Origin: a virus | IMG/VR virus record: IMGVR_UViG_3300033141_003168 | Span: 46,332-110,331 of that record | Direction: 5' to 3' (one strand) | DNA length: 64,000 bases | Shown here: one piece after another, positions 41,380 to 56,651 of the stretch | Layout: each line of letters opens with the position of its first letter | Position numbering within the stretch: the first letter of the stretch is position 1 | Made by a program: the position numbers and the translations under genes | Notes under the pieces: generated by a model | What the model was told of the DNA's origin: nothing | The model's input: only the letters and a program-made list of their open reading frames with translations | The model's database searches: none

Positions 41380-43449
41380 ATGTTGAAAGAAAAACAGAGG
41401 GTTGCGTTATCGTTACTTGACGATATAGTGCGTCTTACGTTAGGCGAATCCATCGGATTTATGAAGCAGGCGGGCGCGAAGCAAATGCAAGATTTTATTC
41501 TCAATCAGGAAAAAGAAGTATTCGATAGCATCCTCGCAGGTTTTGCCGATTCGATTAAGACAACCGATAAGCAACTTGCGGCAAGGGTCGCGAAGCTAAC
41601 CGTTCCTGGCAATTTCACGGTGGCGAAAACCGGTAAGAGAATTTTGAAATCTTCTGCACAGAAGGATTTTCTGAAATGGTCTGAAAAAATTTGGGGCAAA
41701 GATATTTCAAGGAAGATAAATCAGAAGATAAACCGTACTATTGAGAAAGCGTACAGGGCCAGTAAACAGTTTGCAGCCTCATCCGGCAACCTTCCGAATA
41801 TCTGGACTGCGAAGGACACGCGGGCATTAAACTTACTGGATAAGGGGTTTACTGGTTGGCTGAGTTCCGATTATATCCGCGTTTCTGATCCGAGGATCAA
41901 AAATATTCTGAAAACCCAATTTGGGAAGGCGGTTGATACAGAAACGATTGCACGAAAACTCGAAGAAAAACTTGGTAATACCTATAAAGATTATAAATCG
42001 TGGAATCAATTAGCAAGTTATCAAGTAAACCTTGCACGAAACGCCGGTCAGATTTATACTTATCAACAAAGCGGTATCACCGAAATTCAATACACCGCAA
42101 TTATCGACAAGCGTACGACTCCGTTCTGTCAGGACATGGACGGCAGGGTGGTGTTTGTTGAAGACGTTACAACACACACAGATAAATTGTTGTCGTTTGA
42201 TAATCCCGACGCTATAAGAGAATTTAAACCGTTTGCATTTTCTGAACAAATAGGTAATACCAAAAAATACAGGCACTTTGCAGGCGGTCATCAAATTAAG
42301 TTTCCAAAAACAAACGACCCAAAGTTAAACAGTAAAACTTTTGACAAGGCTGGCGTAATATTGCCACCGTTTCATAACCTGTGCAGAACAACTACCATAA
42401 TATCTTCAAGAATTGTTTCTGACTTTGTTTCTCCGGTTGCTGCGGTTCCTGTTGGTGTTAAAACACCGGCGATGGCTCCAAGACCACCATTACTTGCTGT
42501 ACCAAAGGGTAAACCACCATCAGTAGCCAGAGCGGTAGAAATGAAACCCGAAAAATTATTTTTTGAACAAATTCAAACGGCTGGTGAAATGGAATTGCCG
42601 GTTGTAAAAGGTGTTATGGAATTATTAAAGAAGAAAGCACCAGATAAATTTTTTCATAATCTTAATTCTCTTAACTTTTTTAATGAAAAGAATGCGGGGC
42701 TTTTATTTAAAAAATGGACGGGCGATAAAATGTCAAAATCAACTGGAGGGTTTTATTCAAAATTAAAAAGAGGCATGGTAGTACGAAATGATATGATACC
42801 TGGACTCGTGATGGACACACCCCTTACGCGCTTACGTCTTGCCGAAGAAGTAGCGTTTCACGAATTAGGTCATCATGTTGAATATAATCTTCTTCTGCAT
42901 CCCAGTTATGTGAAAAAAGGTGCTCCTATATTGTCACGATGGCTGGATTACTCAAGAGCTATAAAACCCATTGATCGAATTACGAGTTATGCAGGAATAA
43001 ATGAAAAAGAACATTTTGCCGAAGCTTTTACTCACTATTTTCGAGGGGGTTCATCTAAGGCAATTTTAAAAGAACGTGAACCAGGAGCGTTTAAGATTAT
43101 GAATGAACTTTCTGAAGCTTTCTCAAAGAGTTTGGCTGTCATGCTAAATGGTTTACTTGGGGAGTTTAATTTTTTGAAGCGGGTAAAGTTATCAAAAGAA
43201 GAAAAGGAGTTAGAAAGAATATCAATTGAAGGCGTTGAATTTCTTTGGGGTGAAATAATACAAGAGAAAAAGGATAAGATTGCTTTTGAAATAGTTACAT
43301 TTCTTTATCCAGGAAATAAATATTTTTCTGAAGCTGTTTTTTGGCATTTTTTACGTAAAGGTTATGATAAAAATGTGGCTGCCAAAATGGAAAAGAAAGC
43401 TAAGAAAATATTAAGTAACGTAACAATCCGCATGTTATCTATTATATAA
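41380..43449 (+). CDS. MuF/SPP1 gp7 head morphogenesis protein fused to a zincin-like metallopeptidase
   Basis: AIIDKRTTPFCQDMDG and PPFHNLCRTT (MuF); FHELGHHV...ITSYA...EHFAEAF (HExxH+E zincin). Confidence 0.88.
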   Translation: MLKEKQRVALSLLDDIVRLTLGESIGFMKQAGAKQMQDFILNQEKEVFDSILAGFADSIKTTDKQLAARVAKLTVPGNFTVAKTGKRILKSSAQKDFLKWSEKIWGKDISRKINQKINRTIEKAYRASKQFAASSGNLPNIWTAKDTRALNLLDKGFTGWLSSDYIRVSDPRIKNILKTQFGKAVDTETIARKLEEKLGNTYKDYKSWNQLASYQVNLARNAGQIYTYQQSGITEIQYTAIIDKRTTPFCQDMDGRVVFVEDVTTHTDKLLSFDNPDAIREFKPFAFSEQIGNTKKYRHFAGGHQIKFPKTNDPKLNSKTFDKAGVILPPFHNLCRTTTIISSRIVSDFVSPVAAVPVGVKTPAMAPRPPLLAVPKGKPPSVARAVEMKPEKLFFEQIQTAGEMELPVVKGVMELLKKKAPDKFFHNLNSLNFFNEKNAGLLFKKWTGDKMSKSTGGFYSKLKRGMVVRNDMIPGLVMDTPLTRLRLAEEVAFHELGHHVEYNLLLHPSYVKKGAPILSRWLDYSRAIKPIDRITSYAGINEKEHFAEAFTHYFRGGSSKAILKEREPGAFKIMNELSEAFSKSLAVMLNGLLGEFNFLKRVKLSKEEKELERISIEGVEFLWGEIIQEKKDKIAFEIVTFLYPGNKYFSEAVFWHFLRKGYDKNVAAKMEKKAKKILSNVTIRMLSII

Positions 43450-43490
43450 GAAAACATTAATTTTTAATTTAGAAATTACGGGAGGACAAA

Positions 43491-46400
43491 ATGGATTTAG
43501 AAAAAATTTCAGTACCTTATGAAAACCTCAATCAAATAAAAGAACTCGACGACGACGTACTCCTTGACGATCACCGCTGGATGCATGTTTATTGGGCTAA
43601 CTTAAAACGCGGAAATAAAATGGAGAATTGGGATAAAGAAATCGTAAAGAAAACCCATGCCGCAATAGTACAGGAAATGTTACTTAGATTTTTCTTTCCC
43701 GCGATGGCACTTGAACTCGACCAGACAGAAGAAACTATTAAAGTTGTTACTGAATGGTTAGAATTAGGTGCAATGAAAGTTATAAGTGCCGCAGAGGGAA
43801 TGGATTTAATTCGTACTGAAAGTTTTATTGAAAATGTTCATAAACACACAAAAATTCCACAAGGGATTTTAATTGCACTTTGGAATGTAGTTGAAATGGA
43901 ATTAAATAATCGCGGTATGCCGGGAGGAAATGAACCGTCCTGGAATCAGGAAAAACAACAAAGTGGTTCCGGTCGTGGTTCGGCAGGAAAGCAGAGAGGC
44001 AGTTATAATAGTCCCACGTTCGCCTACATAGCAGTTTACGGCAAAGAACCTGATATACCTTTAAGCGGCAGAATAAACAGCCCTGAGAAGGAATGGAAAG
44101 ATGGTATACTCGTAGACGAACATTTAAAACTCGAATGGCTTGATTCAATCGACGCAATCGAGGAACTTGAGTTGAGAGCTTCATGTGAAGGCCACGGTGA
44201 AAACAGGGTTACGCATGTGGTTGTTCGTTTAAAATCGCGTAACGAAACCGAAAGCAAAAAATTAGTTGAAGTGTTAAACAATAAAGACGATATTTATTCA
44301 AAATATGATGTAGGAACAGAAGGATATCCCCGAATAGTTATTGCGGGAAAAACGTGGTACGGTCAACCAGGTTGGAATGATTGGTGGGAGACTTTATCTG
44401 AAAAAATAAAAACGGCACTAAAAGCAATTAAGAAAGAGCTTGAAGAAAATTTATCAGTAGGAAAATCTTTACTCGTTTGTTCCAATTCGGAATGGTATTC
44501 AAAATATTCTTTACCGATCGCAGAATCTGACATAGAAGAAACGGATTGGATTGAATTTGAAAAAACGAAACCGCCTTTTATGTCGCCCGGTGGCAAGATG
44601 CGGCAATCAAAACAACTTGTAACTTACATACCCGAACATAAGATTTACTGTGAACCGTTTGCGGGGGCGGCAAACGTATTATTTAGGAAAGAACCTTGCG
44701 AAAATGAAATTCTTTCCGATCTTGATTCGGATTTAATTGTTACGTGGAAGTTCATCAAAAGTTGTTCTGAAATTGATTTGGGAAAATTGTCAAGATTTTA
44801 TTGGGAGCGGCCCAAAGATAAAAAACATTTTAAATCTATTTCAGATCAAGAATGCGATAGCATGCTTGATACGGTTTATAAGTTTATGTATGTTCGTTAC
44901 TGGGGTTTCCGAGGCGGTAAAACATTTAGTGAATCAATCGCACAAGATCGCACGGCACTTCAAGGATCGGCATGGGAACGAATTAAAGGGAAAATAGTAC
45001 GGGCTAAAGATCGAGTTAAGAATGTGAAGTTCGAGCGGGCGAATTACGAAGATGCCATCGCAAAACACGATTCCAAAATTACGTTTTTTTATCTTGACCC
45101 GCCTTACGGCAAGACAGGTGCACACTATTGGAAAACTTTAGATTATGAAAAACTCCTAAATGTGGTAAAAAAAATAAGAGGCAATTTTTTATTGCAACTT
45201 CACAATGATGATAAAATAAAAAATTTATTTGGAAAGCATTTTAAAATTTACACAATCACTGCTCGATATATTAGAAATCAATCGTCGCCAGACATGGGAC
45301 AATTATATAATGAGACGGAATTACTTATAAGCAACTATGAATTAAAAACAAGTGCAAGTAAGTCATTTGCAATGGACGATGATCTTGCACCCGTGGCATC
45401 TTCAGGAATAGAGTTGGGTAAAGAAATTCAGTTTGATGACATTCTTTCCGACTTCAACGACGATTATGTAATTGATCCGGCTTTCATTTCTCTTGGCGGG
45501 AACATTCTTTCGGGTGAAACAGATGAAATGGTTGATTACCACGTGAGTGGAAATTTCGGGCAAGATTTCAAAGTGCCACTTGAATTCAGACTTGGACGCG
45601 GTTCATCTTTTACCGAACGGCAGTCAATAAATTATCATGCCGAAAAAACGGATGTAGAATTAGAACCGCTATATGCACTCGTAGCGCGAAGGATAAATAA
45701 GAAAAATACTATCATACAAATGAACTTTACGGATCGCGTTTCTACTCCGCAGAATCCTCCTGATTTAATTACTCCGGAAACCGGAGTAGTTTTTGAAAAA
45801 AGTGGTGAAACAAATCTGATTTTAAAAGAAACCGTCATAAATGAGGCAAAGGCATTTATACTTGTTACGCCATTCGTTTACGTAGTAGGTGGTGTAGTTA
45901 CGCAAGGCGCAACCAAAGGCGATGTAGACATTCTTATTCGAGGACAGTTCGATGAACCGTTTCTTAGTAAAATTACACAACCGCTAATTGATAGATCGAG
46001 TACACCAAAACGACTTCACTTTCTTGACGACAAATATCACGGCCCATTTACTGCTCACGTTCCGATTTATGAATTGATGCTTGTGCCGGTAAGTTTGCTG
46101 GAAAATTCAGATACAAAAAAACAAAGAGTGGCTTCGCCAGAATTAATAAGGGAGGCGGCGCGGTCAAAATCAGAAGATCGTATAGAAATGTTTCGCTTCT
46201 TCACCGCAATGAAACCGACGAAAGGATTTTTTCCGGAACAACGACAAACAATAGATGCGTTTTTATCGCTTTTTAAGGAAGACAATTTTCCAGTAATGGC
46301 GACTAAAAAATATGATGGTATGGCTTCGCTGTGTTGGAAGTCCGGAAAGCGTGTAGAAATATGGTCTATCGAAGGAGAAAATAATACCGACCGTTTTCCG

Positions 46401-49400
46401 AATGTCGTAAAAGAAATTCAGGAACTAAATGCGGATGAACTCGCTTTGCTTATTGAAATTGAAATGTGGGACGACGGGAAACATTTACCGCGCGAAGCGA
46501 CTGTTGGTTATGTACATTCTGATAGTCCCGCTGATGATTCACAGATAACCGCAAACGTGTTTGACATAGTTTACGTTAAGGGCCTTGAGACAGACGTAAA
46601 AGACTTACCAGAGGGCGATATACACAAAGAACCCTTTTCGATACGTGACGACGTTTTGAAGGCACTTTCGTTTGAACAAGAGACCGATGGTGTACCTGAT
46701 CCTAAAATTAAATTGAATCGCACACCGTCGCATAAAGCAGAAAATGCGGAAGAACTAAAAAAACTTACGAATAAATTATCGGCTACTCCGGGATCGGAAG
46801 GGGTTGTTGCCAAACCAGCGAAAGGAACTTACGTGCTTCATGGTCGTCGCGGAGAACAAATTAAGTTTCATGTTTCCGCCGTTGCAAATGTAATCGTAAT
46901 AAAAAGAATTCCCATTTCGGGAGCAAAAAATGTTTACACTTATTTATTTGGTTTTAAAGTTCAAGGACAGGACATTTCCGATAAAAAACGGGTAAGGATG
47001 CGCGGTAAAGAATATCTTTCTTCAGGGAAAACATTTAATACTTCTCTACTCGCAAAAGTCGGTGAAGTAATAGAAATCGAATTTGAACAACTTAATTACA
47101 TTATTAATCTCGATTCCGGCGAAGAAGATGTGACTTTGTGGGCACCGCGAGTAATGAGGAAAATAAATGTCGCAGGAGATTCAATTGCTGGTGTGATTAA
47201 AAAGGCAAAAGATGAAAATATTTTAGTTACGAAGGAAATTGAAAACAAAACGATAGTTTACAAAACGTGGGATAATTATAATGAAAATTTTCTTAAATCA
47301 TTATTTAATGAGTATAATGTAGAATGGATTAAAGATGTTTCTATTAATAATGATTCCTTTAGTAAATCTGATTTTTATAATGATTTTAGTAAAAAAGCTG
47401 ATTCACTTAGCGGTCTTATTTCAATAGACTTATGTAGCGGTGCGGGTGGATTATCGCTCGGTTTAGAAAAGGCTGGATTTTCCACCGCTATTATGTCTGA
47501 CTTAGATGATGATTCAATGATTACGGCAGAAAAAAACTTTAAGAACACTGTTATTTGGAAAGCAGACCTATTTAAATTAGACTTCCAAAAACTTCATAAA
47601 TCACTTAGAGGAAAACAACTTAATCTTCTGGCAGCAGGTCTTCCGTGTCAAGGACATTCAGTCAGAGGTAAAGGTAAACATTCTGAGTCAGTAGATGAAA
47701 TAGAGAATACACACGAGTCTTTTAATAAACTTTATAAATATTTTCTTAAAGGCGTTATGATACTACAACCTGAATTTATTCTTATAGAAAATGTTCCCGG
47801 AATTTTAAGTAATGAAAACGGGAAATATGCTAATTTAATCATATATGGATTAAAAAAATTAAATTACGATGTTGAATATAAAATTTTAAAAGCTGAAGAG
47901 TATGGAGTTCCACAAATAAGAAGAAGAGTCTTTTTTATTGGAAATAGGCTTGGCCTTCCGATAATTTATCCGAGAAGCACCGAAAAAAGAATTTCAACTT
48001 GGGATGCGATTAAGGATTTAAGTAATAAATCTGAAGACGTGGATTTTGGGCACATAATTCCGAAACACTCAACAGAAACCAAAAACAGAATTAGTCAAGT
48101 GAAGCCCGGAAAAAAATATGTAACTGAAAGTGGAAAAGAGGGTTATGCTTTAAGGAGAATACCTAAAGATAAACCAGCTTATACAATACTTGCTTCAACT
48201 ACGCTTATACATCCAACTCTTGATCGTTTTTTAACGCCGCGTGAATGTGCAAGGATACAATCATTTCCTGATTCTTTTAAATTTCATGGAGGTTCTCAAA
48301 GTCAATTCCGGCAGATAGGTAATGCGGTTCCTCCTGAATTAGCAAAAGCCATAGGCTTAGTTATGAAAAAACAATTAGTAAATTACAAAAATTCAAAAGA
48401 AAAAATTTATAAAAATTTTGAAAAACAAAAAGACCCATATATGATTATTCCCGATGAAAATGAAATTTATAATTTTGTAGCACAACATCATGCCAGAGGC
48501 AAAAGTATCCACACCGATCTTCGTATGGAGTCCGAAGATAAAGATTTTCTTATTGGGTACACACTGGACGATCAAATAAAGAGTGCGATTAAAGAACCGA
48601 TTTTAACTTTAGCGCAACTAAAAAAAGTAGATGCAGACGATTCCAATTTCAAAATAAATTGGTCGGATGGAACATGGGATAAAAGAAAACGCGGTGAAGT
48701 GTTAGTAAATGTAAATATCAATACTCAGAAGAAAGCAATAGAACCAGTTGAATGGTTGGGCTATGAAGGAGTTGTTGAAAGCGGTGGCGAAGAAAAACCC
48801 GCACCCGGTGCGACACGATTTTTTCCCGGCGTGTTTCATGTAGTAGATAAAGGCACGGTAGAATATGGTTCGCAACGAAGTTATTTTCATGAGTATTTTT
48901 TAAGCGGAAAAAAATTAAATTATAGAATCATCGTCAGACTTTTAAACCTTCCCGCTGGAACAGAAGGCGATATTCCCAAATCGTGTCTGGTTGCAGATGA
49001 TTTTATTATAGGAAAAGAAGAAAATTTAATTACTACGGAAACCGGATTAGTTTATAAAGATTCGTTGAAAGCAGAGGAAATTTTACCACCTTCGGAGCCT
49101 CAAGAAGTATCAGTACCGGGGCCAATTCGGCTGACCATGAAGCCCATAGATCAAAGACCTTATGTACTTTCAAAGCGAGCAGTCGATAAAGGTTGGATGC
49201 CTCCTGATAAAAAATCGGCTTTGCCAAAACAAATCAGAAAAAAGATTCCTGATGAATTTCAATATTGGAAAGTTACTGGTACGAAGGCGCGAGACATTAG
49301 GGATTCGCTTGTCAAAGCTATTAAAGACGGCGTGGTAAAAATAGAGTTTGAGGAAATTCGTAAACAGGAAGAGGATAAAGAAATCAAGGGTGATTATACT

Positions 49401-49811
49401 TTCAGCTACCAATGGTTCAAGGGGCCGGTTGTAGTACGCGAAGGCCCGTCAAAAGAACAGTGGCATATTTTTCTTGATTTCGGAAAGAAAAAAGTCGCTC
49501 ACATATTGTTACAATCCAACCCCTTGACAGAAAAATCAGTTTCGGCTACAGTGAAACCAGACATAGATAAAGAAGTAATGTCCTTAGAAGGTTTTCAAAA
49601 ACCGGGAACGCTCCTTAACCCAACAAAAGAAACACCATCGTGGGTTAAGATTAAAGATAAGGGAAAAATAATCAAGATGGTAGATAAACCGACTTTCAAA
49701 AAATACGAATTTAAAGGAACCGGTCTGAAAGGGCTTTATACATTAACCGCAGAATCACCAGACTCTAACATTTGGATACTTGAATCATCGGAGCTACCCG
49801 AGGTCAAATAA
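43491..49811 (+). CDS. 2106-aa polyvalent protein: SCEGH domain, Dam-like MTase, 2x nucleotidyltransferase-like, ATP-dependent DNA ligase, C5 cytosine MTase, 2x LigD phosphoesterase-like
   Basis: PGGK..EPFAGAA..FYLDPPY (~44570-45340); VVGG....GDVDILI (~45860-46090); KKYDG (46305-46319), EIE, FD, EGVVAK; DLCSGAGG, LPCQG, ENVPG, QIRRR, QIGNAV (~47415-48370); FVAQHH...HTDLRME (~48470 onward). Confidence 0.88.
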   Translation: MDLEKISVPYENLNQIKELDDDVLLDDHRWMHVYWANLKRGNKMENWDKEIVKKTHAAIVQEMLLRFFFPAMALELDQTEETIKVVTEWLELGAMKVISAAEGMDLIRTESFIENVHKHTKIPQGILIALWNVVEMELNNRGMPGGNEPSWNQEKQQSGSGRGSAGKQRGSYNSPTFAYIAVYGKEPDIPLSGRINSPEKEWKDGILVDEHLKLEWLDSIDAIEELELRASCEGHGENRVTHVVVRLKSRNETESKKLVEVLNNKDDIYSKYDVGTEGYPRIVIAGKTWYGQPGWNDWWETLSEKIKTALKAIKKELEENLSVGKSLLVCSNSEWYSKYSLPIAESDIEETDWIEFEKTKPPFMSPGGKMRQSKQLVTYIPEHKIYCEPFAGAANVLFRKEPCENEILSDLDSDLIVTWKFIKSCSEIDLGKLSRFYWERPKDKKHFKSISDQECDSMLDTVYKFMYVRYWGFRGGKTFSESIAQDRTALQGSAWERIKGKIVRAKDRVKNVKFERANYEDAIAKHDSKITFFYLDPPYGKTGAHYWKTLDYEKLLNVVKKIRGNFLLQLHNDDKIKNLFGKHFKIYTITARYIRNQSSPDMGQLYNETELLISNYELKTSASKSFAMDDDLAPVASSGIELGKEIQFDDILSDFNDDYVIDPAFISLGGNILSGETDEMVDYHVSGNFGQDFKVPLEFRLGRGSSFTERQSINYHAEKTDVELEPLYALVARRINKKNTIIQMNFTDRVSTPQNPPDLITPETGVVFEKSGETNLILKETVINEAKAFILVTPFVYVVGGVVTQGATKGDVDILIRGQFDEPFLSKITQPLIDRSSTPKRLHFLDDKYHGPFTAHVPIYELMLVPVSLLENSDTKKQRVASPELIREAARSKSEDRIEMFRFFTAMKPTKGFFPEQRQTIDAFLSLFKEDNFPVMATKKYDGMASLCWKSGKRVEIWSIEGENNTDRFPNVVKEIQELNADELALLIEIEMWDDGKHLPREATVGYVHSDSPADDSQITANVFDIVYVKGLETDVKDLPEGDIHKEPFSIRDDVLKALSFEQETDGVPDPKIKLNRTPSHKAENAEELKKLTNKLSATPGSEGVVAKPAKGTYVLHGRRGEQIKFHVSAVANVIVIKRIPISGAKNVYTYLFGFKVQGQDISDKKRVRMRGKEYLSSGKTFNTSLLAKVGEVIEIEFEQLNYIINLDSGEEDVTLWAPRVMRKINVAGDSIAGVIKKAKDENILVTKEIENKTIVYKTWDNYNENFLKSLFNEYNVEWIKDVSINNDSFSKSDFYNDFSKKADSLSGLISIDLCSGAGGLSLGLEKAGFSTAIMSDLDDDSMITAEKNFKNTVIWKADLFKLDFQKLHKSLRGKQLNLLAAGLPCQGHSVRGKGKHSESVDEIENTHESFNKLYKYFLKGVMILQPEFILIENVPGILSNENGKYANLIIYGLKKLNYDVEYKILKAEEYGVPQIRRRVFFIGNRLGLPIIYPRSTEKRISTWDAIKDLSNKSEDVDFGHIIPKHSTETKNRISQVKPGKKYVTESGKEGYALRRIPKDKPAYTILASTTLIHPTLDRFLTPRECARIQSFPDSFKFHGGSQSQFRQIGNAVPPELAKAIGLVMKKQLVNYKNSKEKIYKNFEKQKDPYMIIPDENEIYNFVAQHHARGKSIHTDLRMESEDKDFLIGYTLDDQIKSAIKEPILTLAQLKKVDADDSNFKINWSDGTWDKRKRGEVLVNVNINTQKKAIEPVEWLGYEGVVESGGEEKPAPGATRFFPGVFHVVDKGTVEYGSQRSYFHEYFLSGKKLNYRIIVRLLNLPAGTEGDIPKSCLVADDFIIGKEENLITTETGLVYKDSLKAEEILPPSEPQEVSVPGPIRLTMKPIDQRPYVLSKRAVDKGWMPPDKKSALPKQIRKKIPDEFQYWKVTGTKARDIRDSLVKAIKDGVVKIEFEEIRKQEEDKEIKGDYTFSYQWFKGPVVVREGPSKEQWHIFLDFGKKKVAHILLQSNPLTEKSVSATVKPDIDKEVMSLEGFQKPGTLLNPTKETPSWVKIKDKGKIIKMVDKPTFKKYEFKGTGLKGLYTLTAESPDSNIWILESSELPEVK
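45767..45791. repeat. 25-bp dispersed palindrome, copy 12 (intragenic)
   Basis: AATTACTCCGG-AAA-CCGGAGTAGTT, encoding LITPETGVV. Confidence 0.95.
49028..49052. repeat. 25-bp dispersed palindrome, copy 13 (intragenic)
   Basis: AATTACTACGG-AAA-CCGGATTAGTT, encoding LITTETGLV. Confidence 0.95.
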
Positions 49812-49837
49812 AAGTTGATTTGGGAAGGAGGGTAGGA

Positions 49838-51259
49838 ATGAAAATCAATGTACCGTTTCGAGTTCCATTCGAGATAACCAAAACAGGAACCTCGCAAGAA
49901 GGCGACTGGGTACTCGAAGGGTTTTGTGCAACAAGTGACCTTGATCTCCAAGGCGACGTTATTACCGAGGCGGCTTTAAAAGGTTCGGCAAATGACCTGT
50001 TGGAAAATTCGACAGTGTTATTTAATCATGACCAAGATAAGCCGATTGGGAAAACCGTTGAAACCAAAGTTATGAAGATCGACGGTACGCTTGGTCTTTG
50101 GGTTAAAGTTGTGATTTCAAAAACTGACCCAAATCTGTGGACTCAAATCAAGGAAGGTGTACTTAACAAGTTTTCAATTCGCGGCAAAGTGTTAAGGGCG
50201 AAGAAGGAATTCGTCGCGGCACTGGGCCGAATGGCAAACGTCATTTATAAAATGAAGTTAATTGAAAACTCGATAGTTTCCTTACCTGCAAATCCAAAAG
50301 CCCGCGCATTGCGTTGGTATGTTAGTAAAGCACTCGCGGACTTTGAAAGTGAAGGAGGATCGTTAGAAATGAACATTTTGGAAGTATTACTGAAACTGTT
50401 GGGCGAGACAGAAGAGATTAAAGAACTCGCCGCACGTTTCGAGAAATACTGCGAGACAAACAACGTCGAGATTGAAAAATCTACCGACGAGGAATTAACC
50501 GCAGTATTCGTTGAATTTCATAAAGAGGAAATTCAGAAAGGCACTCGTGTTGAAGTTCTTGCTGCAATTGATAAAACCGCAACCGCAATGTCTACACTCG
50601 CAGAAAAACTTCCTGACGAACTGAAAGAAACAGGTCAGGCCGTCACGGATGCAATTAAGGCTGCGAAGGCAATAGCAACGTCGATGCCTGCTACTCCGTA
50701 TCCCGCACCTGCCGCGAAGGATACAGAAGAAGATGACAAAGGTGAGGATGATAAGGATAAAAATGTAGACAACAAGGATGATCCGAATGCGGATGCCGAC
50801 AAAACCTCGAAGTCAAAAGGCGTACTTGGGTTATTGCTTGAATTTATTCAGGGTAAGGCAAAAGAAGCCGAGAAAACAGACGGCGAATTTGACCTTGAGA
50901 AATTCAAAGATGAAATGGGCGCGTTTCTCGAAGAAAAAGCAAATGAGGATAACGCGGCAACACAGAAATCCATCGATGACCTGGGTGTAAACATCGTAAA
51001 GGACATGGGTAAGGCACTTGAAGGTTTAACAAAAACTTTCACTGACAAAATCGAAGACGTTTCAAAAACTCTGACCGGCGCGATTGAAAAATCCGGCGCG
51101 GACATCGTAACACTCAGTGACAAAGTTAAGTCGCTTGAGGAGAAGGTTCCCGGCGCAGGCGAAGACAACGACACACAGCTTGAAGCAGAGAAAGGCGTTT
51201 TTGGAGGCGTATTCGGCAAGGGTAACGTGAAAGGCGCGAGATCGACAGAAAAAAAGTAA
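49838..51259 (+). CDS. HK97-type prohead protease fused to an acidic scaffold region
   Basis: LEGFCAT..LDLQGDVI, LFNHD..KPIG, IKEGVLNKFSIRG, ENSIVSLPANP, then a long acidic helical tail. Confidence 0.92.
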   Translation: MKINVPFRVPFEITKTGTSQEGDWVLEGFCATSDLDLQGDVITEAALKGSANDLLENSTVLFNHDQDKPIGKTVETKVMKIDGTLGLWVKVVISKTDPNLWTQIKEGVLNKFSIRGKVLRAKKEFVAALGRMANVIYKMKLIENSIVSLPANPKARALRWYVSKALADFESEGGSLEMNILEVLLKLLGETEEIKELAARFEKYCETNNVEIEKSTDEELTAVFVEFHKEEIQKGTRVEVLAAIDKTATAMSTLAEKLPDELKETGQAVTDAIKAAKAIATSMPATPYPAPAAKDTEEDDKGEDDKDKNVDNKDDPNADADKTSKSKGVLGLLLEFIQGKAKEAEKTDGEFDLEKFKDEMGAFLEEKANEDNAATQKSIDDLGVNIVKDMGKALEGLTKTFTDKIEDVSKTLTGAIEKSGADIVTLSDKVKSLEEKVPGAGEDNDTQLEAEKGVFGGVFGKGNVKGARSTEKK

Positions 51260-51322
51260 AGCAATAACACTCTTATTGAGTGGTAATAAAAATTCATTTC
51301 AGTATTAAGGAGGATAGCCAGA

Positions 51323-52606
51323 ATGACCAATGAAGAAATTGCAAAAGCAATAGATATGAGCGACCTTGCAAACGGTGAACTAAATACGGAGCAACAGGAT
51401 AAGTTCATCGACATGGTTTATGACCATACGCGGTTACTCAAAGAAGTTAGGCACGAAGAGGTGGACAACCCGAAAGGTGAACTGGGTAAAATGTTCATAG
51501 GCGAACCGATTACCCGCGACGCCTCCGTTGACCCGACCGCAGGGGAAGCGAAACCGAAAACCACGAAGGTGACCTACGAGACTAAAAAGGTTATGTCGTG
51601 GTACGACTTACCGACCGATGTGCTTTTCCGCAACATTGCGAAGGAAGCTTTCGAGGATCAGTTCATGGCACAGGTTACAAAGAGGATCGGCAACGACCTC
51701 GAACTGTTAGCTATTCGCGGAGATCAGGCCGCGTATTCCGGCGATACCACACCAATGGGGTTTCTCCTGCGCGTTCTGAACGGATGGAAATACCAGTCTG
51801 ACTCGTCTCACATTTTCGATGCAGGTGGTGCGTCAATCCAAAAAGGCGTTTTCGCTCGAATGTCCAGGGCATTACCCGAACAGTACAAAGGTGATTCCGG
51901 CCTGCGTTGGATTGCTTCGGAGTCTATCTATCAGGACTGGATGGACACAGTTGCAGATCGTTTGACGGCGGCGGGTGACGATGCACTCGCAGGCAAGGGA
52001 CTCGCTCCTTATGGAATTCCGTTTCTTCGCGTACCGCTTATTCCGTCAAACCTCGACGTAAGTATCCTCGCCGCTTCTGCCGGTTTTGCACTCGGCACAA
52101 GACAAGGCCCGTTCACGTTTACTTCAGCAGACAATGCGATTGAACTGAACATCGATGCCGCAGGCGCAATTGCTTTCACAATGGACATAGGGACTTTTAC
52201 TACGTCCGAAGTAGCGGCTCAGATCAATGCCGCAATGGGAGCCTACGTTGCGTTCACGTCAGGATTCGGTCAGTTACTCTTACAGTCACCGACTACGGGC
52301 GGAGCTTCGACAGTCGAGATTATTGCAGAAGCAAATGATTGTTACGACGTACTGGGTATTACAGTCGGAACGTACACCGGCTCTGCTGCCGCCGCTCCCG
52401 CAAACGTACCGGAAGGCAGTTATATGTTCCTCGCCAACCCGAAGAATCTCATTCACATTATGTTGAAAAAGACTCGTCTTTTCACCGAGTTTAAACCACG
52501 CGCCGACACGCTTGAAGTTACGATCTACAACGAGGTGGATGATATAATGGAGAATAACGATGCAATAGTGAAGTGTATCAACCTTCGCCTGCGGGAACTA
52601 ATCTAA
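51323..52606 (+). CDS. major capsid protein with a ~115-aa inserted domain
   Basis: GELNTEQQDKFI, GNDLELLAIRGD, LNGW, LPEQYK, LANPKNLI; position after the protease. Confidence 0.9.
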   Translation: MTNEEIAKAIDMSDLANGELNTEQQDKFIDMVYDHTRLLKEVRHEEVDNPKGELGKMFIGEPITRDASVDPTAGEAKPKTTKVTYETKKVMSWYDLPTDVLFRNIAKEAFEDQFMAQVTKRIGNDLELLAIRGDQAAYSGDTTPMGFLLRVLNGWKYQSDSSHIFDAGGASIQKGVFARMSRALPEQYKGDSGLRWIASESIYQDWMDTVADRLTAAGDDALAGKGLAPYGIPFLRVPLIPSNLDVSILAASAGFALGTRQGPFTFTSADNAIELNIDAAGAIAFTMDIGTFTTSEVAAQINAAMGAYVAFTSGFGQLLLQSPTTGGASTVEIIAEANDCYDVLGITVGTYTGSAAAAPANVPEGSYMFLANPKNLIHIMLKKTRLFTEFKPRADTLEVTIYNEVDDIMENNDAIVKCINLRLRELI

Positions 52607-55421: not shown

Positions 55422-56651
55422 ATGGCACAAGTAATCTGGAAACCAACCGTACAAGAAACTACTACGGAAACCGGAGTAGTTTTTAATAGCGAAGGTGCGT
55501 CCCTTACTAAACTGAGGAACGGGCTCGGTTCTATTTGGGGTGAATTTCCTACTGACGGTGCTATTGTAACTTTTGCAAGTCACACCGCAAAAGGTATTAC
55601 CGAGATGTTAGGTTTCAAAGCCGACGTGCTTCCTACAGACGAAGCAACATCGGGATCAGTGAATTACCAAGTTTCTTTTGAAGGTGGAAATTGGCAGTAC
55701 TGGACTGGGGCAGTATTTCAGGACGCTGCTTCAAATGAATGGAATACGGATGTTGAATTATCAGTCGGACTTTCGGTTACTGATTCTGTGGACGAGATTC
55801 GTTTTCGCGCCCTCATTTCTCCCGGCTTAACAACGGCTCCGACGTTCCGCAACATTCAGTTCAACTGCGAGTTATCCTATGACTTCGAGGAAGATGTTTA
55901 CCGTACACTACGGCGGTGGGTACAAGACAGGATCGCCGCCCGATTGTACTACAAGGAAGTCCTTATTGGTGCGACAGATAAAGTAACGATACAAGGGCTT
56001 CTTGAAGTCAAGTCAGTCGTGAATGTTTACAATCTTACAAACGACCCAACCCAGTCGGTAAACATTTTCGACTCATTGAATGGTGACGAGGTTACTATGA
56101 CTGCGGTACAAGACGCAGGTGAAATGATTCTTGTTATTTACTTGGGAACGACAGACGTGTTTATTACTGCCGAACCTGAAAGTCATGCTGCTGAACTTCC
56201 CGTGGTAGTGGTTCAAATTTTGAACTTCACCGAGTACAAACCTGAACGTGAAGAAAAACCTTTGCGCGAATATTTGGGTGACCATGTAAAGATCGGACTT
56301 AGGACTCCACCTGCAAGGATGCGATTTGATGTTGTAGTAAATTGCCTTGCACAGAGAAATTCTGTTTCGATTGCTCTCGCAAATTCTGTTTCTAAAATGT
56401 TCAAACTTGGGTATTTGAAGGAGAACAAGCTGACCGCGATAGAAAGCGGGGAAGTAATTGACATACTTAACCTGCAACCTATCATCACCGCCGATGATGT
56501 AACCGAACGGCTTTTTAGAAAGATGGTTCGGTTTACAGGCGCGACATGGGATTGGGGTGGTACGATCCTTGAAACACTCGACACCATCGAAACCATTTAT
56601 TTTGATACAGGCACTACATTGGGTTATCTTGAGAATCTGGAGGTTCAGTAA
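55422..56651 (+). CDS. tail terminator-like protein with an N-terminal extension
   Basis: Position before the sheath; ELPVVVVQ and FDVVVNCLA beta-rich C-terminal domain. Confidence 0.55.
   Translation: MAQVIWKPTVQETTTETGVVFNSEGASLTKLRNGLGSIWGEFPTDGAIVTFASHTAKGITEMLGFKADVLPTDEATSGSVNYQVSFEGGNWQYWTGAVFQDAASNEWNTDVELSVGLSVTDSVDEIRFRALISPGLTTAPTFRNIQFNCELSYDFEEDVYRTLRRWVQDRIAARLYYKEVLIGATDKVTIQGLLEVKSVVNVYNLTNDPTQSVNIFDSLNGDEVTMTAVQDAGEMILVIYLGTTDVFITAEPESHAAELPVVVVQILNFTEYKPEREEKPLREYLGDHVKIGLRTPPARMRFDVVVNCLAQRNSVSIALANSVSKMFKLGYLKENKLTAIESGEVIDILNLQPIITADDVTERLFRKMVRFTGATWDWGGTILETLDTIETIYFDTGTTLGYLENLEVQ
55457..55481. repeat. 25-bp dispersed palindrome, copy 14 (intragenic)
   Basis: AACTACTACGG-AAA-CCGGAGTAGTT, encoding ETTTETGVV. 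Confidence 0.95.

Follow-up and report, generated by a model that had tools for sequence, protein, structure and literature searches.

How is a phage polypeptide that carries several enzymes packaged into the head and matured? Such polyvalent proteins occur widely among phages, and a role in counter-defence is ascribed to them. The question is raised here by a 64,000-nucleotide stretch of viral DNA (the window), the right-hand part of a virus record that is complete at 110,331 bp and has direct terminal repeats (IMG/VR IMGVR_UViG_3300033141_003168). Between 37.5 and 59 kb, the window holds a myophage structural module comprising TerL, portal, MuF, a giant open reading frame (ORF), protease, capsid protein, neck and sheath. 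The giant ORF (43491..49811; + strand, as for all genes and candidate sites given below in this form) encodes a 2106-residue polyvalent protein that joins unrelated enzyme domains in one polypeptide, namely Dam, an ATP ligase, a C5 methyltransferase (MTase) and two modules resembling the LigD 3'-phosphoesterase (PE). Its place in the gene order portal, MuF, polyprotein, protease, capsid associates it with MuF and with virion packaging.

An earlier note on this DNA had called these genes correctly; they encode a MuF with an ATLF-like zincin, the 2106-residue Dam/ATP-ligase/C5-MTase protein, an S78 protease-scaffold and a capsid protein. The note had also proposed that a hydrophobic residue, any residue and Lys, followed by a small residue, marks the domain junctions of these proteins and is cut by the prohead protease; all strings that it quoted are present at their places. 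By comparison with related loci, we find that a conserved Lys-centred junction motif is real, with Φ-E-K (Φ, hydrophobic) or, more broadly, [acidic]-Φ-x-K as its core. On the same comparative grounds, we consider it probable, though by no means certain, that this motif is a processing code for the prohead protease.

A lysine motif at the borders of shuffled modules

A search with the protease-scaffold returned 83 homologues, and 106 loci were collected by alignment-based scans of Elusimicrobiota and Planctomycetota metagenome-assembled genomes and IMG/VR; a scan of viral contigs with a single protein gave only one distant locus. In about 60 loci, a polyvalent protein of the same modules lies directly upstream of an S78 protease-scaffold, and the modules vary in order and copy number. 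Because module order is shuffled among the relatives, borders could be defined from them and from Pfam without any use of the motif.

At these borders, the relatives carry a tripeptide that ends in Lys. Ahead of three Dam subtypes the sequences read ..ELEK↓VRAAFKSPGGK, ..EFEK↓RKLVPFNQWGG and ..xEK↓G-VRQAFGSYGGK (the arrow marks the proposed cut, between positions P1 and P1'); ahead of another MTase module they read ..PFEK↓ANYVGNK, ahead of the PE-like module ..xEK↓QxDPYM, and after Dam LY[IV]EK↓. Five border types, comprising the three Dam subtypes, the 'ANYVGNK' MTase module and an 'AGRK' site in the scaffold, were anchored on their first conserved residues and compared position by position. 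P1 is Lys in 80/80 distinct sequences and never Arg, and P3 is hydrophobic in 76/80. Pairwise identity at P2 is 0.72-1.00, with Glu throughout in two of the types, and 0.32 in DamA, while the adjoining linker (P15-P5) is merely 11-26% identical. Overall K/(K+R) in these proteins is 0.49-0.55, and the E-K positions use all four synonymous codon pairs. The parity of Lys and Arg and the synonymous codon variation together place the constraint on the protein rather than on the DNA, and make it specific for Lys. An internal translation start or Shine-Dalgarno-like signal at the E-K codons was rejected on the same use of all four codon pairs.

In 28 representative polyvalent proteins, [ILVFM]EK is 3.3-fold more frequent in N-border zones (p=2e-3) and 6.1-fold more frequent in C-border zones (p=3e-7) than in module interiors, and none of the control classes Φ-DK, Φ-ER, Φ-KE, Φ-EE, Φ-KK and Φ-[not E]-K is enriched in those zones. 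The motif of the earlier note reaches 1.9-fold at N-borders and 1.5-fold at C-borders. These motif classes with controls replaced a plain tripeptide and dipeptide enrichment, which was dropped since conserved module ends such as SNFPLKPLHLY made up most of its signal.

Within the window, the earlier motif was counted as [ILVMFA]-x-K-[STAGNQ] (the loose motif), with the expectation taken from shuffling each protein. It occurs 32 times in the polyprotein (21.6 expected, z score (z) 2.4), 18 times in the protease-scaffold (7.3 expected, z 4.4) and 16 times in MuF (9.7 expected, z 2.2); the capsid protein (4 against 3.3) and 58 other genes of the window (143 against 132.8, z 1.0) show no excess. 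Of the 32 polyprotein sites, 10 are no more than 12 residues from an independently defined border, where 4.6 would be expected (p=0.011). The claim that the motif marks domain junctions was therefore borne out in part: the motif is non-random in head genes and modestly enriched near borders, but it is too permissive. The refuting condition set in the earlier note, a motif no commoner at linkers than Lys-rich proteins would give by chance, did not hold, if by a modest margin. The other 22 of the 32 sites are interior to modules, several within the C5 MTase, so the loose motif as written does not alone mark junctions, and most of its matches are interior and probably irrelevant. The small residue after Lys did not survive. 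P1' at junctions is also R, V, I, G, E, L or K, often enough that 'small' is not part of the junction rule.

With so permissive a motif, we asked whether the pattern might reflect nothing more than chance in Lys-rich proteins. About 22 occurrences would be expected in the polyprotein, a like number is interior, and the earlier note had picked 12 of the 32. However, only in head genes does the motif exceed its shuffled counts, Lys occupies 80/80 aligned borders, and the scaffold shows z of 10-13 with flat Arg and Glu controls. Chance, already disfavoured, is thus very improbable.

The prohead protease and its other proposed substrates

Which enzyme would read such a motif? The gene that follows the polyprotein (49820..51259) encodes a 479-residue S78 (HK97-type) prohead serine protease, at about residues 20-175, fused to a helical scaffold, as assigned by Pfam PF04586, alignment with HK97 gp4, and AlphaFold2 (AF2) and Foldseek. 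The PF04586 match spans residues 43-163 with 36.5 bits against a cut-off of 21, and BLASTP against HK97 gp4 gives 26% identity (E 9e-7). The window's FNH and FS align with HK97 FFNH65 and MS114, so that His and Ser are kept, and H64 and S113 are invariant in 20 protease homologues; H65 and S114 are the catalytic residues of HK97 gp4. The AF2 protease core has a predicted local distance difference test score (pLDDT) of 80-90, and its top Foldseek match is T4 gp21 (5jbl; probability 1.0, template modelling (TM) score 0.56), followed by herpesvirus assemblins, all with E >1e-3. As modelled, the window protease has the T4 gp21/herpesvirus assemblin fold. The database gene call for the protease starts at ATG 49838 (MKINVP..).

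The scaffold region carries an excess of the same motif. In 55 non-redundant scaffold regions, Φ-x-K occurs 531 times against 376 expected (z 10.5) and the loose motif 315 times against 166 (z 13.6), while Φ-x-R (z -0.4) and Φ-x-E (z 0.9) stay at expectation. The mean context around a scaffold Lys is [DE]-Φ-x-K-[SQ]-Φ. As a positive control we used T4 gp22, gp67, gp68 and residues 1-65 of gp23, in which [LI]-x-E occurs 28 times against 11.9 expected (z 5.3) and Φ-x-K is not in excess (z -0.6). The control recovers the established L/I-x-E rule of gp21. In the HK97 delta domain, the loose Lys motif is likewise in excess (6 vs 1.9, p=0.004), and its occurrences include the known FNK103↓S.

Individual sites in the protease-scaffold can be followed through the relatives. 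Ahead of the first protease strand lies ITK21↓T (49874..49882), in the disordered N-tail of the model, with Lys in at least 90% of 20 homologues, and at the end of the protease domain lies VSK170↓A (50321..50329; WY[VI]xK↓AL), with Lys invariant in 20/20. Within the scaffold, IEK220↓S (50471..50479) falls at a loop (model loop 208-216), and Φ-E-K↓[SA]-T is shared by the window protein and the 3 relatives closest to it. Among the scaffold sites, conservation is highest at AEK352↓T (EAEK↓TDGEF; 50867..50875), which is at least 90% conserved at Lys and sits at a helix end followed by a loop; the earlier list of sites was incomplete in that it lacked this one. Φ-[ED]-K↓AGRK is present in 13/13 distinct scaffold sequences that have the AGRK[IVL][SK] anchor. 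The AF2 model places K21, K220 and K352 in loops or in the disordered tail, and the six scaffold sites of the earlier note that are not conserved are within long helices.

The major capsid protein (427 residues; 51323..52606; phrog_1623 E 7e-61; 30-34% identity to annotated capsid proteins) begins with a candidate leader cleavage site, IAK8↓A (51338..51346). Among 63 distinct capsid N-termini encoded downstream of these proteases, 45 contain Φ-x-[KR]↓[AS]-[ILVM], mostly at residues 8-12, compared with 8.9% of 607 control ORFs. In the relatives, this site lies about 7-15 residues ahead of the start of the Pfam Phage_capsid profile, and in HK97 it lies 9 residues ahead. Phmmer with HK97 gp5 matched only one of the capsid proteins (L027), so positional equivalence was derived from Pfam profile coordinates; in these coordinates the candidate capsid leader site of the relatives appears equivalent to HK97 K103↓S104. 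The window's own capsid protein has no Pfam match and is tied to the HK97 position via homologous capsid proteins that share the N-terminal motif.

Cargo and protease also occur as one polypeptide. The cargo is fused to the S78 protease in two loci (L061 and L046), and a second locus set, fetched via cargo module F, comprises about 28 IMG/VR loci in which a ligase/PE polyvalent protein ends in a Peptidase_S78_2 (XkdF) domain. These domain matches have E 1e-27 to 1e-29 (L109-L149, e.g. L125:5480-10795, L131:6920-10825, L147:4223-6049). In this set, Lys joints occur in 8/10 sequences ahead of the PE-like module, in 12/13 ahead of the protease and in 6/6 after the ligase. Since the module-F loci carry XkdF-type fusions, they replicate the result and are not a protease-independent negative control. 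The window phage is a split version of this cargo-protease fusion. In the window, the polyprotein stop (49809-49811) is followed by 9 nt and then by the TTG-initiated protease ORF in a different frame. A polyprotein-protease frameshift product is possible, because relatives fuse both genes.

The junction lysines might instead be cut by another protease or at another time: by the MuF zincin, by a host trypsin-like or Lon-type enzyme, or only after injection. The window MuF does bear an ATLF-like HExxH domain, and Iyer et al. 2017 proposed zincin autoprocessing of polyvalent proteins, possibly post-injection (PMC5512222). However, of 48 loci with the Φ-E-K MTase joint, just 3 have any HExxH ORF within 10 kb of flanks, and these are two loci of the same sequence (L004 and L038) and one doubtful match (L077), which excludes the zincin as the common protease. 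In every locus with the Φ-E-K joint, an S78 or S78_2 protease is encoded next to the cargo or fused to it, and the Lys motif is also found in the scaffold and at the capsid leader, both classical substrates of prohead proteases. We regard cutting by another enzyme or at another stage as quite unlikely.

We therefore favor reading by the phage's own HK97-type prohead protease, a Ser/His enzyme of assemblin fold. The proposed code would have an acidic P4, a hydrophobic P3, often Glu at P2 and Lys at P1, with P1' often S, A, Q, T or G and not restricted. In the prohead, the protease would detach from its scaffold and cut that scaffold at many Φ-x-K sites. It would remove the 8-residue capsid leader at IAK↓A and a leader of about 29 residues from MuF, and it would cut the polyvalent protein at the inter-module Φ-E-K joints. 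Cutting inside the prohead would divide the polyvalent protein into its Dam, ligase, C5-MTase and phosphoesterase-like enzymes, each small enough to be ejected, which would remain in the head and pass into the host along with the DNA. The comparisons themselves establish the motif with its position, conservation and Lys specificity, its co-occurrence with the protease, and the fold and catalytic residues of that protease; cleavage, the enzyme responsible, the place of cutting and the delivery of the products to the host are inferred from them.

Candidate joints of the polyvalent protein and a possible non-cleavage role

The layout of the polyvalent protein was drawn from Pfam, from PDB sequence matches and from the shuffled-module borders. 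It begins with an N-region (1-355, with a module at 172-315), Dam (359-621), an unknown segment (625-770) and module B with the ATP ligase (771-1258). A linker, the C5 MTase (1303-1630), a PE-like module (module D, 1646-1818), module E (1860-1955) and PE-like module F (1968-2100) follow. Pfam places Dam at 366-593, the ATP-dependent ligase at 929-1121 and the C5 MTase at 1312-1626, and a Pfam search of the unassigned segments gave no match. Profiles from relatives of modules D and F match the LigD-type 3'-phosphoesterase 3p4h/3p43, with E-values of 2.5e-3 and 1.3e-4, respectively. In an AF2 model of residues 340-1275, the ligase alone is confident, and Dam and all linkers have pLDDT <55.

The best-supported joint is FEK358↓T (44556..44564) at the N-border of Dam, where Lys is found in every distinct sequence of the three Dam subtypes (17-19 each) and P2 is Glu in two of them. 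Just past Dam, ASK624↓S (45354..45362) lies within about 4 residues of the relatives' conserved LY[IVS]EK↓ at the Dam C-end, in a gappy alignment. FEK770↓S (45792..45800) marks the N-border of module B and the ligase; it is not conserved in relatives and is encoded in a 35-nt DNA repeat. At the C-end of the ligase are VTK1248↓E and VYK1258↓T (47226..47264), of which K1248 is aligned with a conserved x-E-K in 21/22 sequences; VYK1258↓T ends the hairpin that holds K1248, at a drop in pLDDT. FEK1645↓Q (48417..48425; NFEK↓QKDPYM in the window) forms the N-border of the first PE-like module. Here K↓Q-x-DP[YF]M is found in 9 of about 14 sequences and in 8/10 of the second locus set, and Φ-x-K↓[QA] in 7/7 aligned relatives that cover the site. 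VYK1856↓D (49050..49058), ahead of module E, is at a module border and falls within the second copy of the 35-nt repeat. The junction of modules E and F has IRK1958↓Q (49356..49364), with Φ-x-K close to it in L028, L057, L048, L056 and L076. At the N-terminus, LEK5↓I (43497..43505) is a candidate leader site: the window protein begins MDLEK↓I and relatives begin MEIEK↓LDKDRD or ..VEK↓LDKDRD, which are not strictly alignable with it; these N-termini may be targeting peptides of the T4 type. Three of the five window [ILVFM]EK sites (K358, K770 and K1645) are at module N-borders.

With these comparisons, the earlier list of sites can be sorted. FEK-T, FEK-Q, ITK-T, VSK-A, the first IEK-S, EEIAK-A and FMK-Q of MuF are supported by relatives, and ASK-S, IRK-Q, VYK-T and FEK-S have approximate support. 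The remainder find no support in the relatives: IQK-G, IDK-T, MGK-A, LTK-T, VSK-T, the second IEK-S, FLK-S, FSK-S (both), IYK-N and IPK-S.

Several observations weigh against a cleavage code. K1248 is in a β-hairpin with pLDDT >90, and the conserved x-E-K there may be structural rather than a cut site; K170 is in a helix past the protease core (pLDDT 51-62) and could likewise be structural, as far as the models go. Four of the five border types precede N6-MTase modules, which may share an ancestral N-terminal element, so that these four types are not fully independent, and the counts are of distinct sequences that are still related to one another. The codons for K770 and K1856 belong to a DNA-level repeat. 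In the window polyprotein as a whole, [ILVFM]EK is no more frequent than expected (5 against 5.0), and one copy, LEK1327, is inside the C5 MTase. Finally, the loci were fetched via the protease or a cargo module, every one has an S78 or S78_2 protease, and among them no locus was found with the same modules beside a protease of different specificity.

These points bear most directly on the alternative that the motif is conserved for a role other than cleavage, as a structural cap or strand, as an element that docks to the scaffold or to the inside of the capsid, or as a joint exchanged with the modules. The lysines in modelled hairpin and helix, the kinship of the N6-MTase modules and the recurrence of the hairpin peptide at junctions would all fit such a role. 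Against it, the motif is also found ahead of unrelated features, namely the PE-like module, the scaffold AGRK site, the post-MuF region and the N- and C-terminal tails, and at Dam it lies ahead of the Pfam profile, which starts only at residue 366. The preference for Lys over Arg, the scaffold-wide Φ-x-K excess and the reciprocal Φ-x-E in T4 are what a protease specificity predicts, and the synonymous codon variation rules out a DNA joint. We thus judge a non-cleavage role unlikely. The central idea of the earlier note, a shared Lys-P1 code read by an HK97-type protease, has strong but indirect comparative evidence in its favor, although its details were wrong.

Tentatively, we also entertain a more general possibility: in phages with S78 or XkdF proteases, Φ-E-K may be a portable joint, such that any module between two joints is packaged, cut in the prohead and delivered with the DNA. 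If so, virion cargo and mature boundaries would be predictable from sequence across thousands of uncultivated phages, and rapid module shuffling and the window-specific C5-MTase cassette would be explained.

This cassette, the C5-MTase module (window 47400-48380, residues 1303-1630), was found in none of the polyvalent proteins of the more than 100 related loci, except for a partial match in L134, to residues 1527-1622. It seems to be a cassette specific to this lineage that was inserted between the ligase and the PE-like module. Other insertions are seen in L113:5645-10852 and L133:1869-7133, where ligase or PE modules are broken by about 280-350 residues that begin with Cys directly past the ligase KYDG motif and finish ..HN; these look like inteins within polyvalent proteins.

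The 35-nt repeat occurs at window positions 45763-45797, 49024-49058 and 55453-55487, with its core also near 2550, 12129, 17605, 32809 and 33872. It has a palindromic core, TACTCCGG-AAA-CCGGAGTA (CCGG-AAA-CCGG). With one mismatch allowed, the core CCGGAAACCGG has 8 occurrences against 0.75 expected, and 0/100 shuffles reach 8. Two copies encode the polyprotein junction peptides LITPETGVVFEK and LITTETGLVYK (K770 and K1856), and the third encodes TTETGVVFN near the start of gene 55422-56651. The repeat might act as a signal at the level of DNA or RNA, or be a site that the CCGG-type C5 MTase targets.

Upstream of the polyprotein, the MuF minor head protein (689 residues; 41380..43449) is joined by a Pro-rich linker to the ATLF-like HExxH zincin (Pfam Phage_Mu_F 188-339 and ATLF 491-576; PHROG minor head protein). 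Its candidate site FMK29↓Q (P3-P1 codons 41458..41466) is aligned with a Φ-x-K↓[ASG] kept in 13/13 MuF relatives, and GIHEK↓S is seen after MuF in relatives. In one relative, L008:2204-4495 is a single 763-residue ORF that matches both portal (query 39-395) and MuF (query 95-289), so that the two may be fused there.

Comparison with known systems

In full-text literature searches, no description of a Lys junction code for polyvalent proteins came up. If the reading proposed here is true, the Lys code would be the first multi-site specificity profile for the S78 family, and the mature enzyme products of metagenomic phages would become predictable. It would also offer a route to load foreign proteins into capsids, as has been done with T4 and P1 targeting sequences.

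Polyvalent proteins were defined by Iyer et al. 2017 (Burroughs, Anand, de Souza, Aravind; PMC5512222), who noted C-terminal assemblin-like peptidases on some of them and suggested a processing role; they gave no cleavage motif or site map and favoured zincin autoprocessing. Like those proteins, the window protein is multi-enzyme (MTases, ligase, phosphoesterase) and linked to MuF and the head, and about 28 of its relatives have a peptidase fusion. It differs from them in that its protease is encoded by a neighbouring gene of its own, and in the specific code proposed here for its junctions. The phage P1 Dar system offers a second parallel, in that a large DNA-modifying anti-restriction enzyme is packaged via head-assembly proteins and delivered with the DNA: DarB, a 250-kDa MTase/helicase, is packaged in the head and has an N-terminal targeting signal (PMC9024508). 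Capsid processing in phage P1, at E120↓S121, is of the Glu type, unlike that proposed for the window phage (PMC9024508). In phi24B, a 2811-residue polyvalent protein, gp47, has been detected in virions (bioRxiv 10.64898/2026.04.10.717836). By analogy with gp47 and with the cargo-protease fusions, the window polyvalent protein may also be present in the virion and delivered to the host.

A close parallel for the processing itself is HK97 gp4/gp5 (MEROPS S78), with which the window shares the Pfam protease family and the aligned His and Ser. Also as in HK97, P1 would be Lys and P3 hydrophobic (HK97 TFNK↓SLG), and the scaffold or delta domain is rich in Φ-x-K; the candidate capsid site appears to lie at an equivalent position. 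Unlike in HK97, the window scaffold forms one polypeptide with the protease instead of with the capsid protein, the putative capsid leader is short, at about 8-12 residues, and the code also occurs in large non-structural cargo proteins that are absent from HK97.

In T4, gp21 cuts at L/I-x-E sites, and the head holds the internal proteins IPI-III, Alt, gp67 and gp68, with an N-terminal capsid-targeting sequence; the giant-phage systems of phiKZ and SPN3US use A/S/G-x-E sites. The window would resemble these systems in having one short motif common to scaffold, capsid protein and ejected proteins, and its protease resembles gp21 by Foldseek in fold. It would differ from T4 in that P1 is Lys instead of Glu, and in that the cargo is one multi-enzyme polyprotein with internal joints rather than a set of small proteins that each lose a leader.

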